DNA from: Escherichia coli
GTDB taxonomy: Bacteria > Pseudomonadota > Gammaproteobacteria > Enterobacterales > Enterobacteriaceae
Assembly: GCF_024700885.2 (NCBI RefSeq)
Contig: NZ_CP117016.1
Reading direction: 5' to 3' (one strand)
DNA length: 64,000 nt
Of this stretch, positions 57,301-64,000 are shown piece after piece (position 1 is the stretch's first letter; each line of letters opens with the position of its first letter). A program made the position numbers.

Positions 57301-60300
57301 AAACCTGTACAGCATGATACTCAACAGCCAGACCCGCTTCTATATTCTGAAATCTGCCAGCTATGGTAACACTCTGTGGGGGAACAGCCTGAATGATCCG
57401 GCTCAGTGGGAGTTTGTTGGCATGGACAAAAACAAAGCAGTTCAGACAGTAAAAGATAGGATCCTGGCCGGGCGGGCAAAACAACCCGTTATCTTTCATG
57501 GTCAGCTGACCGGGAATATGGATGTCGCCATTCCACAGGTGCCGGGGGGAAGAAAGGTCATCTTTGATGGTAGCGTGAACCTGCCGGAAGGTACCCTGAG
57601 TCAGGACAGTGGCACCCTGATATTCCAGGGACATCCGGTTATCCATGCCTCCATCAGTGGCAGTGCACCGGTCAGCCTGAACCAGAAAGACTGGGAAAAC
57701 CGTCAGTTTACAATGAAAACACTGTCGCTGAAAGACGCTGACTTCCATCTTTCACGTAACGCCTCGCTGAACAGTGACATTAAGTCGGATAACAGCCATA
57801 TCACACTGGGAAGTGACAGGGCATTTGTGGATAAAAATGACGGAACAGGAAATTATGTCATTCCGGAGGAAGGTACCTCTGTCCCGGACACCGTGAATGA
57901 CAGGAGCCAGTATGAAGGGAATATTACGCTGAACCATAACTCAGCCCTGGATATCGGCAGCAGGTTCACCGGGGGGATTGACGCTTATGACAGTGCCGTC
58001 AGCATCACCTCTCCGGACGTCCTGTTGACAGCCCCGGGTGCTTTTGCCGGCAGTTCACTGACAGTGCATGATGGCGGTCATCTTACAGCACTGAACGGTC
58101 TTTTCAGCGACGGGCATATTCAGGCCGGTAAGAACGGCAAAATCACCCTGAGCGGTACACCGGTTAAAGATACGGCTAATCAGTATGCCCCTGCTGTATA
58201 TCTGACGGACGGATATGACCTGACCGGCGATAACGCAGCACTGGAAATTACCCGTGGAGCACATGCTTCCGGTGATATTCATGCCTCTGCGGCATCAACA
58301 GTTACCATCGGGTCTGACACGCCGGCAGAACTGGCTTCTGCGGAAACGGCTGCATCGGCGTTTGCCGGCAGTCTTCTTGAGGGCTATAACGCAGCATTCA
58401 ATGGTGCCATAACCGGTGGCAGGGCTGATGTCAGTATGCATAATGCACTGTGGACTCTGGGTGGGGACTCTGCCATCCACAGTCTTACCGTCAGAAACAG
58501 CCGTATTAGTTCTGAAGGAGACCGTACATTCCGTACCCTGACGGTGAATAAACTGGATGCAACAGGCAGTGATTTTGTTTTGCGTACGGACCTGAAAAAT
58601 GCCGATAAAATTAATGTGACTGAAAAAGCCACTGGTTCAGATAACAGCCTGAACGTCAGCTTTATGAATAATCCTGCTCAGGGACAGGCCCTGAATATTC
58701 CTCTGGTCACGGCACCGGCGGGAACTTCAGCAGAGATGTTTAAGGCCGGCACCCGGGTGACAGGTTTCAGTCGGGTGACCCCAACCCTGCATGTTGATAC
58801 CAGTGGTGGCAATACGAAGTGGATACTGGATGGTTTTAAAGCGGAGGCTGATAAAGCCGCTGCCGCGAAGGCTGACAGTTTCATGAATGCCGGGTATAAA
58901 AACTTCATGACGGAAGTTAACAATCTGAACAAACGTATGGGTGACCTGCGTGACACAAACGGTGATGCCGGTGCCTGGGCGCGCATCATGAGTGGTGCCG
59001 GTTCTGCAGACGGTGGTTACAGTGATAATTACACCCATGTTCAGGTCGGCTTTGACAAAAAACATGAACTGGACGGTGTGGACCTGTTTACCGGTGTCAC
59101 GATGACCTATACCGACAGCAGTGCAGACAGCCATGCATTCAGCGGAAAGACGAAATCGGTGGGGGGCGGTCTGTATGCTTCAGCATTGTTTGAGTCCGGT
59201 GCCTATATCGATTTGATTGGTAAATATATTCACCATGACAATGATTACACAGGTAACTTTGCTAGCCTGGGAACGAAACACTACAACACCCATTCCTGGT
59301 ATGCCGGTGCTGAAACGGGTTACCGCTATCACCTGACAGAGGACACGTTCATTGAGCCGCAGGCTGAACTGGTTTACGGCGCCGTGTCCGGGAAAACATT
59401 CCGCTGGAAAGACGGTGATATGGACCTGAGCATGAAGAACAGGGACTTCAGTCCGCTGGTTGGAAGAACAGGGGTTGAACTGGGCAAGACCTTCAGTGGT
59501 AAGGACTGGAGTGTGACGGCCCGTGCCGGAACCAGCTGGCAGTTTGACCTGCTGAATAATGGAGAGACCGTACTGCGTGATGCGTCCGGGGAGAAACGGA
59601 TAAAAGGAGAGAAGGACAGCCGGATGCTGTTTAATGTTGGTATGAATGCGCAGATAAAGGACAATATGCGCTTTGGTCTGGAGTTTGAGAAGTCAGCCTT
59701 TGGTAAATATAACGTGGATAATGCGGTAAACGCGAATTTCCGGTATATGTTCTGATGTGGGGGTAAAGGGCTGCCGGAAGGCAGCCTTTCTCAGAGACTC
59801 TTAAAATATAAAACTGAAGGTCTTCGGTAAGGGGGAGTGTATTAGACGTCAACTAGTTTTGCCGACTGGCGCGAGCCTGTTTAAGATTCTGTGTAAATGC
59901 CTTTCTCAGAAGTGACCGTCCAGGCGGTCACCGAACTCGATAATAAAGCGGCTCATTGCCATTCGCCAGTCCTTCAACGGCATCGTCCATTTCTGGGACG
60001 CAGACTGGATTGCCAGCCACACCACTTTTTTCACCGAGTCGTCTGTCGGGAACACTTTACGCTTTTTGATCGCATGGCGGATCACGCTGTTTAGCGACTC
60101 GATGGCATTCGTCGTATAGATCACTTTGCGGATGTCCGTTGGATAAGCGGTAAGCGTACAGCGAGGGCCGTATTGACGGGGATGTGTTATTCAGCTGGCA
60201 GTGCTATGCGCCACGGAAGCAGTTCGCTGACCCGGTTGACCGGCCAGTCTGCTATGACGCCAAGCACATGGCGAAGGTAGCTTTCTGGATCCACGTCATT

Positions 60301-63300: not shown

Positions 63301-64000
63301 GTAATGGCTACTTGTGATTTTTTCCCTTTTGCTGTCAGAGTTCGGTAACGAGAACACAATCGTTGTTGAGCTTTCCATGCAATATCTTTGGAATATTGTG
63401 TTACAGAGTCCGGTCGGTAATATATAAGCCATGCACCAACTTTTGCAGGTGTACGATAAGACCAGGCGGCTTCGTAAAGCAGACGTCTCAGTTCGCTGTT
63501 TCCAACTTTTGTTATTCCTCTGGGACGAATACTGTTTCCACTGGAATATTCACCTGGCACCAGTCCCAGAAAAGCCATGAGCTGTTTGGGATTGGAAAAT
63601 CGCGAAAAATCACCCAGTTCAGCAACCAGGGTTATTGCAATTAGCTGACCAACACCTTTTAGAGCCTGCAACTGGCAGACCAGATTGCACAGAGACCACT
63701 CAGGTAACAGGCGAGATATTTCCTGGTCGAGTTGAAGTATGCGATCTTCAATCTGCTCCAGACTTTGACAATAGTGTTGAAAAGCAATCTGCTGAGATGG
63801 CTGACTAAATGATTGATTAGCTAACCAGGTTCGATGTTTGCCGGTCCAGTGCTTCCCTGCATAACGTTTGTCTGTTCGCAATAGCATGCTCAGAATTCGC
63901 TGTCGGGCAACTCTGCTGTCTCGTTTAGCTGCTGCACGGGCTCTGATTAGATCCCGCATAGCTTCATGAGTCAGGTCAGGGATCCAGACAGGGGTAAGTT

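Follow-up and report, generated by a model that had tools for sequence, protein, structure and literature searches.

Four insertion sequences stacked downstream of pic in Escherichia coli, and a predicted RNA-guided preference of ISEc45 for IS66-family transposase genes

Introduction

The DNA on the 3' side of pic in Escherichia coli raises two connected questions: which insertion sequences (ISs) make it up, and whether an IS66-family transposase gene that is cut there by an IS110-family element was cut at an arbitrary point. The region was analysed as part of a stretch of 64,000 nucleotides (the window, contig NZ_CP117016.1), of which positions 50500-64000 were found by sequence comparison to be identical to E. 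coli MLI114. The 3' side of pic is a stack of four ISs in direct contact, namely IS1414, ISEc8, ISEc43 and ISEc45, and this anatomy, with its exact junctions, is practically certain. The IS1414 copy ends where the right end of ISEc8 begins, the left end of ISEc43 cuts the ISEc8 copy short within tnpC, and ISEc43 is broken within its own tnpC by ISEc45, which lies in the opposite orientation and is inserted without target duplication. The elements would have arrived by successive transposition in the order IS1414, ISEc8, ISEc43 and ISEc45. The region is ordinary, and RefSeq already annotates the same picture in identical genomes; its annotation is concordant in MLI114, AST81, 55989 and 042. All four elements named in the initial annotation of this DNA are present, at coordinates that were exact or off by at most about 35 bp. 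The explanation that fits best as a whole, which joins this anatomy with site specificity of ISEc45, its guidance by an RNA and later recombination, is considered highly probable, and its parts carry strengths of their own.

Remnants of IS1414 and ISEc8

The IS1414 remnant (IS256 family) is a 3' end of 277 bp at 59873..60149 on the minus strand and retains the final ~83 transposase codons (59906-60157). At the DNA level it shares 99.3% identity with H118, a copy that bears the IS1414 annotation. The ORF at 59906-60124(-) represents the last ~50 residues of the Pfam domain Transposase_mut (positions 332-377 of 379, E=1.5e-8) and matches the NCBIfam IS256 model at positions 286-336 of 338. Judged by the mutator-type transposase and the DNA identity of the 277 bp that are left, the remnant is assigned to the IS256 family and to IS1414; in RefSeq it is a pseudogene without its N-terminus. 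The astA gene (EAST1) is known to be embedded in IS1414. Inspection by eye of the ORF translations of the 277-bp remnant gave no match to the EAST1 peptide.

The ISEc8 remnant (IS66 family) is a 3' end of 492 bp at 60150..60641, also on the minus strand. Its terminal repeat begins GTAAGCGTAC at 60150, with GTAAGCG as the IS66-type end, and the last ~151 codons of tnpC occupy 60187-60639. The DNA of the remnant is 99.4-99.6% identical to copies annotated as ISEc8, and its junction with IS1414 occurs in 330 genomes. The ORF at 60187-60672(-) contains the C-terminal parts of the Pfam domains DDE_Tnp_IS66 (positions 185-283) and DDE_Tnp_IS66_C, and it matches the NCBIfam IS66 model at positions 258-384. 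ORFs, Pfam and NCBIfam matches and DNA identity thus agree with the IS256- and IS66-family remnants that had been proposed here.

Truncation of ISEc43 within tnpC

The first 2323 of the 2541 bp of ISEc43 (IS66 family) are present at 60642..62964 on the plus strand. The left terminal repeat starts at 60642 with GTAAGCGTAAAGCC, followed by tnpA (60724-61161), tnpB (61158-61508) and the cut tnpC (61539-62964). Pfam domains HTH_Tnp_1, TnpB_IS66 (E=3e-36), and LZ_Tnp_IS66, zf-IS66 and DDE_Tnp_IS66 (E=5e-92) were found in ISEc43, and its genes match the NCBIfam models for IS66 TnpA, TnpB and transposase. The tnpA-tnpB-tnpC arrangement with IS66 domains, by which the family is recognized, is therefore present. 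An intact 2541-bp copy in xdhC (L004), bearing the 8-bp duplication TGGCTACC on both sides and both IS66 terminal ends, was used as reference. Comparison with this copy revealed a single mismatch (60750) over 60642-62964 and complete divergence from 62965.

The break in tnpC falls after codon N475 (...RAVCLGKKN) plus one base, within the conserved motif GKKN-Y/F-x-FFG. It had been claimed that the translation diverges after this peptide near 62960 and that the IS66 tnpC is cut by an IS110-family element; the exact breakpoints against L004 bear out both statements and place the break at 62964/62965. The opposite outcome, a full-length IS66 element with intact ends, was checked and not found. 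GTAAGCG-type repeats are not present at both ends of the window copy, which has its left end at 60642 and lacks the last 218 bp. The flanks also show no matching 8-bp duplication, the left one being CTCTATGG and the right one TGTTATTG in MLI114 and AST81 or GACTATTA in 042. The IS66 right end on the far side of ISEc45 in MLI114 is that of another IS66 variant and not that of ISEc43.

Identity and family of ISEc45

The element from 62965 to 64000 (minus strand) is named ISEc45 in RefSeq and belongs to the IS110 family with an IS1111-style layout. The window holds the right-end 1036 of its 1446 bp, and the other 410 bp lie beyond the window end, in MLI114. Comparison of filled and empty sites gave an insert of 1446-1447 bp with a one-base ambiguity and no duplication: the empty site, ...AAAAATT/ACGTG... 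(a slash marks the insertion point here and below), shows no repeated bases after the insertion. The ends are CTT-ATGACCTTT...AAAGGTCAT-ACCATCT, or AGATGGT-ATGACCTTT...AAAGGTCAT-AAG when the element is read from left to right, that is, a 9-bp subterminal inverted repeat with a 7-base extension on the left and a 3-base extension on the right.

The transposase gene is represented at 63216..64000(-) by its stop codon and the C-terminal ~260 of 377 codons, with the start codon outside the window. The initial annotation had an IS110-family gene beginning on the opposite strand about 250 bp past the break. Strand and distance hold, but what lies there is the stop codon (63216), 252 bp past the tnpC break, and not the beginning of the gene. 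The 251 bp between break and stop codon (62965..63215, minus strand), downstream of the transposase gene, are the non-coding region of ISEc45 itself and not a spacer.

The Pfam domain PF02371 (Transposase_20) falls within the part of the transposase that is in the window, and the ORF contains the motif GLVPGEYSSG. The full 377-amino-acid protein, taken from the source genome, matches the NCBIfam model 'IS110 family RNA-guided transposase' (E=1.7e-82), and the transposase of the window element is 98.9% identical to that of ISEc45 in ISfinder. PF02371 and the G(L)xPxxxxSG signature place the protein among IS110/IS1111 transposases, the N-terminal DEDD domain lying mostly outside the window, and insertion without duplication, at a specific site and in a single orientation, is likewise a property of this group. 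ISEc45 also has the strict IS1111 layout of subterminal repeats and a long downstream non-coding region (criteria from Siddiquee et al. 2024, PMC11187229), with a repeat of just 9 bp and with 251 bp of non-coding DNA downstream of the transposase gene versus 61 bp upstream.

Relatedness to strict IS1111 members over the full length of the transposase was not found. The protein is 25% identical to that of IS4321 over 300 residues and 35% identical to that of ISEc11 over 128 residues only. Core IS1111 transposases have 330-350 amino acids and form a tight cluster, to whose members the ISEc45 transposase is 15-25% identical in the published identity matrix (PMC11187229); that paper mentions ISEc45 solely in this matrix and in its list of transposases. 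Because the ISEc45 transposase has 377 amino acids and is only ~25% identical to that of IS4321, rules derived from the IS1111 core may not transfer exactly to it.

The ISEc45 copies annotated in strains 042 and 55989 and in O104:H4 plasmids have the same length of 1446-1447 bp and the same ends, and those of 042 and 55989 occupy the same position inside ISEc43 tnpC as the window copy. The window copy differs from them in that it appears to be a mosaic of both 042 copies and is flanked, in the source genome, by parts of two IS66 elements.

Target specificity of ISEc45

ISEc45 is very likely a site-specific element that is nearly always found at one site in IS66-family tnpC, and its insertion point in the window is this preferred target rather than an arbitrary position. 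One form of the IS66 target is GGAAAGAAAAATT/ACGTGTTCTTCGG, and another is of the TTATG type. Among 656 E. coli records with the right end of ISEc45, 636 (~97%) have it joined to IS66, a figure that counts records, many of them clonally related, and not independent events. Altogether the right end is matched at ~870 places. The eight copies sampled, taken from plasmids among other settings and from no fewer than five different neighbourhoods, all share codon and orientation, and their IS66 flanks fall into three variants. Two relatives use this codon too: one on an Enterobacter plasmid, with a transposase that is 73% identical, and one in Trabulsiella (L054), with a transposase that is 72% identical. 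The Trabulsiella host gene is an IS66-family tnpC, and its product shares only 40% identity with ISEc43 TnpC across the fragment that could be aligned.

A single ancestral insertion that has since been inherited, or has spread with IS66 copies moved in trans, would account for the association if ISEc45 had no target preference of its own. Other IS66 copies, of which there are many per E. coli genome, could indeed mobilize an IS66 element with a broken tnpC, and the 97% includes clonally related records. This explanation is nevertheless very unlikely, given that one and the same codon is occupied in IS66 flanks of three kinds, with many differences between them, in the distant Trabulsiella gene and, as a further case, in the Enterobacter plasmid. 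Furthermore, ISEc45 sequence types do not follow IS66 types (L008 versus L010, at one locus), and all IS110/IS1111 members studied so far are target-specific (PMC11187229). Site specificity of ISEc45 itself is the preferred reading.

When 100,044 species genomes were searched with the 17-base right end of ISEc45, 40 loci were obtained, close to the ~35 estimated by chance. Two of these are real relatives: the Trabulsiella element and a 60% identical element with a non-IS66 flank in a metagenome-assembled gammaproteobacterial genome (L022). Plasmid relatives with 44-52% identity (Pseudosulfitobacter, Azospirillum, Agrobacterium and ISSso6) showed no IS66 tnpC at their borders, and the IS66 preference is therefore limited to the ISEc45 clade. 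A literature search on ISEc45, on ISEc43 and on bridge RNA together with IS66 and IS110 returned resistome and mobilome listings; no paper describing an IS66 target or a guide for ISEc45, and no published RNA, circle or transposition assay of this element, was found in it.

Predicted guide RNA of ISEc45

The ~250-bp gap between tnpC and the transposase gene probably encodes the guide RNA of ISEc45, and on the strength of folding and variant comparison it is reasonably likely that an RNA from its own non-coding region guides the element to the IS66 site. In the proposed mechanism, the junction of the excised circular IS would form a TTGACA-N17-TATGAC promoter for transposase and RNA, and the 251-bp non-coding region would be transcribed together with the transposase. 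The folded RNA would offer, in an internal loop, two short guide segments, one per target flank, and as a seekRNA or bridge-type RNA it would steer the excised circle to the IS66 site.

The elements of this model were located as follows. The right subterminal repeat (62968-62976) lies within the non-coding region, a perfect -35 hexamer TTGACA is present at 62976-62981(-), and the spacing TTGACA-N17-TATGAC is obtained at the predicted circle junction. A structured RNA resembling seekRNA or bridge RNA is predicted at 63040..63213(-). Its outer stem is long, and the internal loop is enclosed by a conserved CCTC/GAGG stem, in which 63180-63183 pair with 63127-63130. The fold of this segment has a minimum free energy of -56.6 kcal/mol (z = -4.32), and 0 of 200 shuffled sequences were as stable. 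In the consensus fold with relatives the stems are kept, with 7-8 compensatory pairs drawn from 3-4 independent lineages only, and the loop sequences vary.

The loop was assigned to the target after folding and comparison of variants. Its 5' side (63169..63179, minus strand) reads GAAAAAGAATT and matches the IS66 flank at the right end of ISEc45: it is identical at 11/11 positions to the flank GAAAAAGAATT/ of the L005 IS66 variant, and with the ISEc43 flank GAAAGAAAAATT/ it gives 8 Watson-Crick and 2 G:T pairs of 11, with one mismatch. The 3' side (63131..63140, minus strand) reads CACGTAGAAA and matches the left-end IS66 flank, across the junction; the CACGTA of this side equals the ISEc43 target CACGT/A. 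Loop variants follow the flanks, with CATATA accompanying CATAA/A (L009) and CAGGTA accompanying CAGGA/A (L014), and in each of the three variants the bases at loop positions 3-4 (CG, TA or GG) go with the target. The copies L008 and L010 have a CACGTA loop yet occupy a TTATG-type target, so the co-variation of loop and flank is only partial. At L022, a clear match between loop and flank was looked for and not found. Complementarity of k-mers alone was also tried as evidence for a guide and was set aside: the A/T-rich target gave many 5-6-mers, and the result was not significant.

The target might instead be read by the transposase or by the subterminal repeats, the structured 3' region being a terminator or a stability element. 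Compatible with such a reading are the shortness of the guide matches and their imperfect fit to the flank that the window has, the targets of L008 and L010 that mismatch their loop, the position of the ISEc45 transposase outside the core IS1111 cluster, and the result of an Rfam scan of 59700-64000 (E<=1), in which no match was found for the structured region or elsewhere. We consider this reading unlikely, since the non-coding region was needed, and its RNA co-purified with the transposase, in 5/5 elements tested from both families (PMC11187229). The name of the NCBI family model matched by the transposase is also that of an RNA-guided enzyme, the two loop sides match the two flanks in the order to be expected, with the matches adjoining at the insertion point, loop variants follow target variants in three cases, and stems are conserved where loops are variable. 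Guidance by an RNA of the non-coding region is thus preferred.

Comparison with known RNA-guided elements

According to the published rules for IS1111-type seekRNA, the non-coding region lies downstream, the match to the top strand lies 5' of that to the bottom strand, and both meet at the insertion point (PMC11187229). The layout modelled for ISEc45 agrees with these rules. With the IS1111-type elements ISEc11, ISKpn4, ISPa11 and IS4321/IS5075 (Siddiquee et al. 2024, PMC11187229) it shares a PF02371 DEDD-type transposase, subterminal repeats with 7- and 3-base extensions, the lack of a target duplication, a long downstream non-coding region, one orientation and one specific target, as well as a predicted circle-junction promoter and loop segments matching first the top and then the bottom target strand. 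Unlike the core members, it has a transposase of 377 instead of 330-350 amino acids and a subterminal repeat of only 9 bp.

A likeness to IS621 is seen in the predicted structured RNA of ISEc45, encoded in a non-coding end, and in a candidate donor-matching segment, AATAAGAG, which spans the predicted circle junction and is invariant in all relatives compared. IS621 reportedly produces a structured RNA from its non-coding end whose internal loops read target and donor DNA; the segment encoding it lies upstream of its transposase gene, and a CT dinucleotide forms the core. In contrast to IS621, no donor-binding loop is established for ISEc45. The sequence ATAAGAG across the circle junction was considered as a donor-binding segment and is not claimed as such, the match being of 7 bases with a chance expectation of ~0.7.

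A precedent for the kind of target is ISEc21, which targets IS3-family transposase genes (PMC11187229). ISEc21 is guided by an RNA, as ISEc45 is predicted to be, and both are directed at a conserved coding motif of a transposase gene that belongs to a different IS family; as the target of both lies inside a transposase gene, each insertion knocks out the host IS. It differs in that its non-coding region is upstream, it has no subterminal repeats and its victim family is IS3, not IS66, and the two transposases are ~23% identical.

Recombination between ISEc45 copies

Strain 042 has two direct ISEc45 copies at this locus versus one in the window. The 2118 bp missing from the window are exactly the stretch from a position in one 042 copy to the equivalent position in the other. 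Phasing of SNPs suggests that the window ISEc45 is quite likely a chimera of two copies of the 042 type. In 63408-63819, 13 informative SNPs match copy 1 of 042 and 2 match copy 2; from 63840, all sites that separate the copies match copy 2, and this holds as far as the left end and on into the IS66 tail. The crossover would therefore lie at 63820..63839, inside the transposase gene. The IS66 tail after ISEc45 in MLI114 and AST81 differs from ISEc43 and equals that after copy 2 in 042, and the downstream genes (a helicase fragment and VasL) are those after copy 2. Homologous recombination between the direct repeats would have deleted the 2118 bp, taking with them the ISEc43 tail and an IS3-family fragment and leaving a single chimeric ISEc45, so that the flanks of the window copy would come from two different IS66 elements, the right one reading AATTTTT and the left one ...CATAA. 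In the published work, circle formation depends on both flanks; copy 1 of 042 is an example of an intact copy with a matching target around it.

It is improbable that the window ISEc45 is instead an ordinary variant that was inserted directly and gained its odd IS66 tail by a separate deletion or by gene conversion. Gene conversion is common among IS copies, two copy-2-like sites stand inside the copy-1-like block, and several SNPs, including a few sites on either side of the crossover, agree with neither of the copies in 042; this strain can thus serve as a model for the ancestor but is not itself the ancestor. Against direct insertion stand the one clean phase switch at 63820-63839, after which copy 2 is matched at every separating site through left end, junction and tail, the exact correspondence of the missing 2118 bp to the stretch between the 042 copies, and the copy-2 neighbours downstream. 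Deletion by recombination between two copies remains the preferred account.

In strain 55989, ISEc45 is truncated at the equivalent of window position 64079 and joined to a block that is inverted upstream of pic in MLI114. This rearrangement and the apparent chimera lend support, by strain comparison, to the earlier remark that the region is a recombination hotspot. AST81 carries an IS110-family element within an IS3-family gene on the upstream side of pic. The window equals MLI114 in that part and does not have this element.

Significance

For the window itself the result matters little: the region is IS debris bordering the pic module, correctly recognised as such and already described by RefSeq for identical genomes. 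It does provide markers for variants of the pic island, namely the IS1414/ISEc8/ISEc43 junctions, the presence of one or two ISEc45 copies and the ISEc45 truncation in 55989, and these three markers show that IS copies here mediated deletion and rearrangement.

Of modest general interest is that ISEc45 appears to be a natural RNA-guided element of the IS110/IS1111 type aimed at the transposase gene of another IS family. The balance leans somewhat towards ISEc45 and its enterobacterial relatives being RNA-guided 'hunters' of IS66-family elements, with CACGTA, CATATA and CAGGTA reflecting retargeting to IS66 lineages; as the guide loop would be aimed at the GKKN-Y/F-x-FFG codons, which are the most conserved in the IS66 transposase, each insertion would disable an IS66 copy. 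ISEc45 with IS66 would be a second case beside ISEc21 with IS3, one in which natural guide variants are visible, and its matched guide and target variants could serve the engineering of these recombinases.

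Insertion sequences downstream of pic

The sequence at 50500-64000 is base-for-base the same as that of E. coli MLI114 (NZ_CP117013.1; human stool, Mali), and 59500-64000 shows 100% identity in strain AST81 and 99.7% in the enteroaggregative strain 55989. The layout downstream of pic is also shared with strain 042. The pic gene ends at 59755. Judged by its sequence, a G+C-rich hairpin, GGGCTGCCGGAAGGCAGCC, in the interval that separates the stop codon of pic from the first remnant (59756-59872) resembles a terminator for pic; the pile of insertion sequences would then begin just past the transcription unit.

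The transposase pseudogenes in the RefSeq annotation correspond to the series described in the initial annotation, which had named IS256-family and IS66-family fragments and an IS66 element with a cut tnpC. The IS256-family fragment was identified as an IS1414 remnant (59873-60149, minus strand; DNA 99.3% identical to annotated IS1414), in which the ORF at 59906-60124 (minus strand) matches only the final ~50 positions of Mutator/IS256 transposase models. The IS66-family fragment is an ISEc8 remnant (60150-60641, minus strand; DNA 99.4-99.6% identical to ISEc8); an IS66-type end, GTAAGCGTAC..., starts at 60150, and the last ~151 residues of TnpC are encoded on the minus strand. A second IS66-type end, GTAAGCGTAAAGCC..., starts at 60642, and 60642-62964 shows one mismatch to an intact ISEc43 (reference copy L004: 2541 bp, in xdhC, with the 8-bp duplication TGGCTACC on its flanks). 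IS66 domains are present, as expected, in the plus-strand genes tnpA (60724-61161), tnpB (61158-61508) and tnpC (from 61539). The cut in tnpC is evident, as the ISEc43 match ends at 62965, where the final common bases, ...GGAAAGAAAAATT, represent codon N475 plus one base, directly after ...RAVCLGKKN.

Structure and classification of ISEc45

An IS110-family gene had been placed on the opposite strand, beginning about 250 bp after this break. The gap and the family (PF02371) hold, but position 63216 is the stop codon of the minus-strand gene and not its beginning; the 250 bp are the non-coding region of ISEc45 (62965-63215). In MLI114 the transposase is a complete 377-aa protein (NCBIfam IS110 match, E=1.7e-82) with 98.9% identity to the ISfinder ISEc45 transposase, the sequence of which was taken from the source data of Siddiquee et al. 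Comparison of the empty site in intact ISEc43 (...AAAAATT/ACGTGTTC...; slashes mark insertion points) with the filled site in strain 042 (...AAAAATT-CTTATGACCTTT......AAAGGTCATATCATCT-ACGTGTTC...) gave an insert of 1446-1447 bp, the boundary being uncertain by one base, and revealed no duplicated target base.

Read in the direction of the transposase gene, ISEc45 starts AGATGGT-ATGACCTTT and finishes AAAGGTCAT-AAG, with a 9-bp subterminal inverted repeat, extensions of seven bases on the left and three on the right, and non-coding parts of 61 bp 5' of the start codon and 251 bp 3' of the stop codon. This layout is that of IS1111-type elements (PMC11187229). Core IS1111 family transposases have 330-350 aa; because the ISEc45 transposase is longer and only ~25% identical to that of IS4321, ISEc45 is treated here, on sequence grounds, as a member of the IS110 family that has IS1111-style organisation but lies outside the strict IS1111 family. 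Joining its ends as in a circular intermediate creates a predicted near-consensus promoter, TTGACA-N17-TATGAC, of the kind reported for the IS110/IS1111 families. Its -35 hexamer TTGACA lies in the right end (62976-62981, minus strand) and the other part in the left end, beyond the window (13896-13911 in record L019). In integrated ISEc45 the hexamer is directed outward into ISEc43 tnpC, in the antisense direction.

Recombination history

In strain 042, pic is followed by the IS1414 remnant, the ISEc8 remnant, the ISEc43 5' part, ISEc45 copy 1, the ISEc43 tail, an IS3-family fragment, ISEc45 copy 2, a tail from another IS66 element, a helicase fragment and the VasL gene. MLI114 and AST81 possess one ISEc45; the 2118 bp that separate corresponding positions in the two 042 copies are missing from both strains. 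Among the informative SNPs at 63408-63819, 13 agree with 042 copy 1 and two with copy 2; from 63840 onward all sites separating the 042 copies show the copy 2 state, and this holds for the left end, the junction (TTATG in place of ACGTG beyond the left end) and the IS66 tail alike. A few SNP sites agree with neither copy. The simplest reading of this SNP pattern is that the window ISEc45 arose when two direct repeats underwent homologous recombination, crossing over at 63820-63839.

In strain 55989, ISEc45 is cut at window-equivalent 64079 and joined there to a block of a DEAD/DEAH helicase gene, a hypothetical gene, an IS3 fragment, IS30 and another IS3 fragment (12574-15960 in its record). 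The same block in MLI114 (50500-53886) lies upstream of pic, inverted relative to 55989, implying that a large segment was inverted or transposed, with IS endpoints. Together with the two-copy and single-copy forms and the absence of a matching 8-bp duplication from every IS66 copy in this region, this rearrangement supports the recombination hotspot proposed in the initial annotation.

Upstream of pic, the IS3/IS30 arrangement of the window differs from that of AST81. There, a second, unrelated gene annotated as 'IS110 family RNA-guided transposase' (2275-3351 in the AST81 record, outside the window) has an IS3-family transposase fragment on one side and an integrase-core-domain fragment on the other, as has been described for ISEc21.

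Target site of ISEc45

Eight ISEc45 copies were compared: those in the pic islands of MLI114/AST81 and 042, on an ETEC O6:H16 plasmid, on a 75-kb plasmid of strain FDAARGOS_403, in Nissle 1917, at two loci adjoining a PfkB kinase gene and at one adjoining a P-loop NTPase gene. All eight are inserted at an identical point within an IS66-family tnpC, in the orientation opposite to tnpC, with three flank variants: GGAAAGAAAAATT/ACGTGTTC (ISEc43), GGGAAAAAGAATT/ACGTGTTC and GGAAATAAAAACT/TTATGTTC. Among complete E. coli genomes, the 100+100-bp IS66/ISEc45 junction was present in 636 of the 656 records with the 200-bp ISEc45 right end.

Such uniformity might reflect hitch-hiking of ISEc45 on a single ancestral composite. 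This explanation is very improbable, since the same site is used across the IS66 flank variants and by relatives in other genera. The Enterobacter plasmid relative (L014; transposase 73% identical) is inserted at the corresponding codon in an ISEc8-like tnpC, GGTCGTAAAAACT/TCCTGTTC, and the Trabulsiella relative (72% identical) lies directly against ...SLGRKN/ in an IS66-family gene whose aligned fragment shares just 40% identity with ISEc43 TnpC. No relative at ≤52% identity was located in IS66.

The ISEc8 remnant has an uninterrupted IS66 site, GAAGAACAGGA/AGTTTTTACGACCC (60364-60388, plus strand), and thus an empty target 2.6 kb from the filled one; it is the exact site filled by the Enterobacter plasmid relative. 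At one IS66 site of the PfkB-kinase locus, the ISEc45 sequence types differ between two strains (042-like and MLI114-like; copies L008 and L010), suggesting that IS copies underwent gene conversion or that the site was occupied more than once.

Candidate guide RNA

Over its first ~175 nt (63040-63213, minus strand), the non-coding region has a predicted fold of -56.6 kcal/mol against a mean of -38.8 kcal/mol for shuffled controls (z = -4.32). ISEc45 and its relatives share a long outer stem together with a CCTC/GAGG stem and a GGGG/CCCC hairpin, with 7-8 compensatory pairs, and the sequence between CCTC and GAGG is variable across relatives. Rfam contains no model for this candidate RNA. The CCTC/GAGG stem encloses an internal loop in the predicted fold. 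Its 5' side, GAAAAAGAATT (63169-63179, minus strand), is the same as the IS66 flank at the right end in the variant of ISEc45 copy L005, and forms eight Watson-Crick and two G:T pairs over 11 positions with the ISEc43 flank. Its 3' side, CACGTAGAAA (63131-63140, minus strand), matches the other flank over its five terminal bases and continues for one base past the junction, CACGT/A. As in the seekRNA rules for IS1111-type elements, the top-strand match is 5' of the bottom-strand match and the two meet at the insertion point.

Loop positions 3-4 follow the target in three natural variants: CACGTA with CACGT/A, CATATA with CATAA/A (ISEc45 copy L009) and CAGGTA with CAGGA/A (L014). The loop-flank matches are short, and copies L008 and L010 have a CACGTA loop in a TTATG-type target, which is unmatched. 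Overall, fold and loop matches indicate that insertion of ISEc45 is probably RNA-guided in a seekRNA-like manner. In 042 copy 2 (~3263 in the 042 record) the transposase gene is intact and the whole 251-bp non-coding region is replaced by the IS3-family fragment; should the guide RNA model hold, copy 2 could act only with RNA from copy 1.

The GGGG/CCCC hairpin is followed by AATAAGAG (~63077-63110, minus strand), which does not vary among the relatives compared (L014, the Trabulsiella relative and a 60%-identical relative from a metagenome-assembled gammaproteobacterial genome). Seven bases, ATAAGAG, match the predicted circle junction CATAAG/AGATGG, where ~0.7 such matches are expected by chance; by analogy with the donor loop of bridge RNAs, they may be a donor-reading segment.

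Relation to known elements

Each of the four elements has a catalogue entry and an annotation, and their nesting is visible in RefSeq; the initial finding is real and correctly interpreted, and it is ordinary. No description of the ISEc45 target and guide was found in the literature. Target-specific, RNA-guided insertion is established for IS110/IS1111 elements, and ISEc21, which inserts into IS3, is a case aimed at the transposase gene of another insertion sequence (PMC11187229). The ISEc45 target and guide would add a further example to a known kind and not establish a new one.
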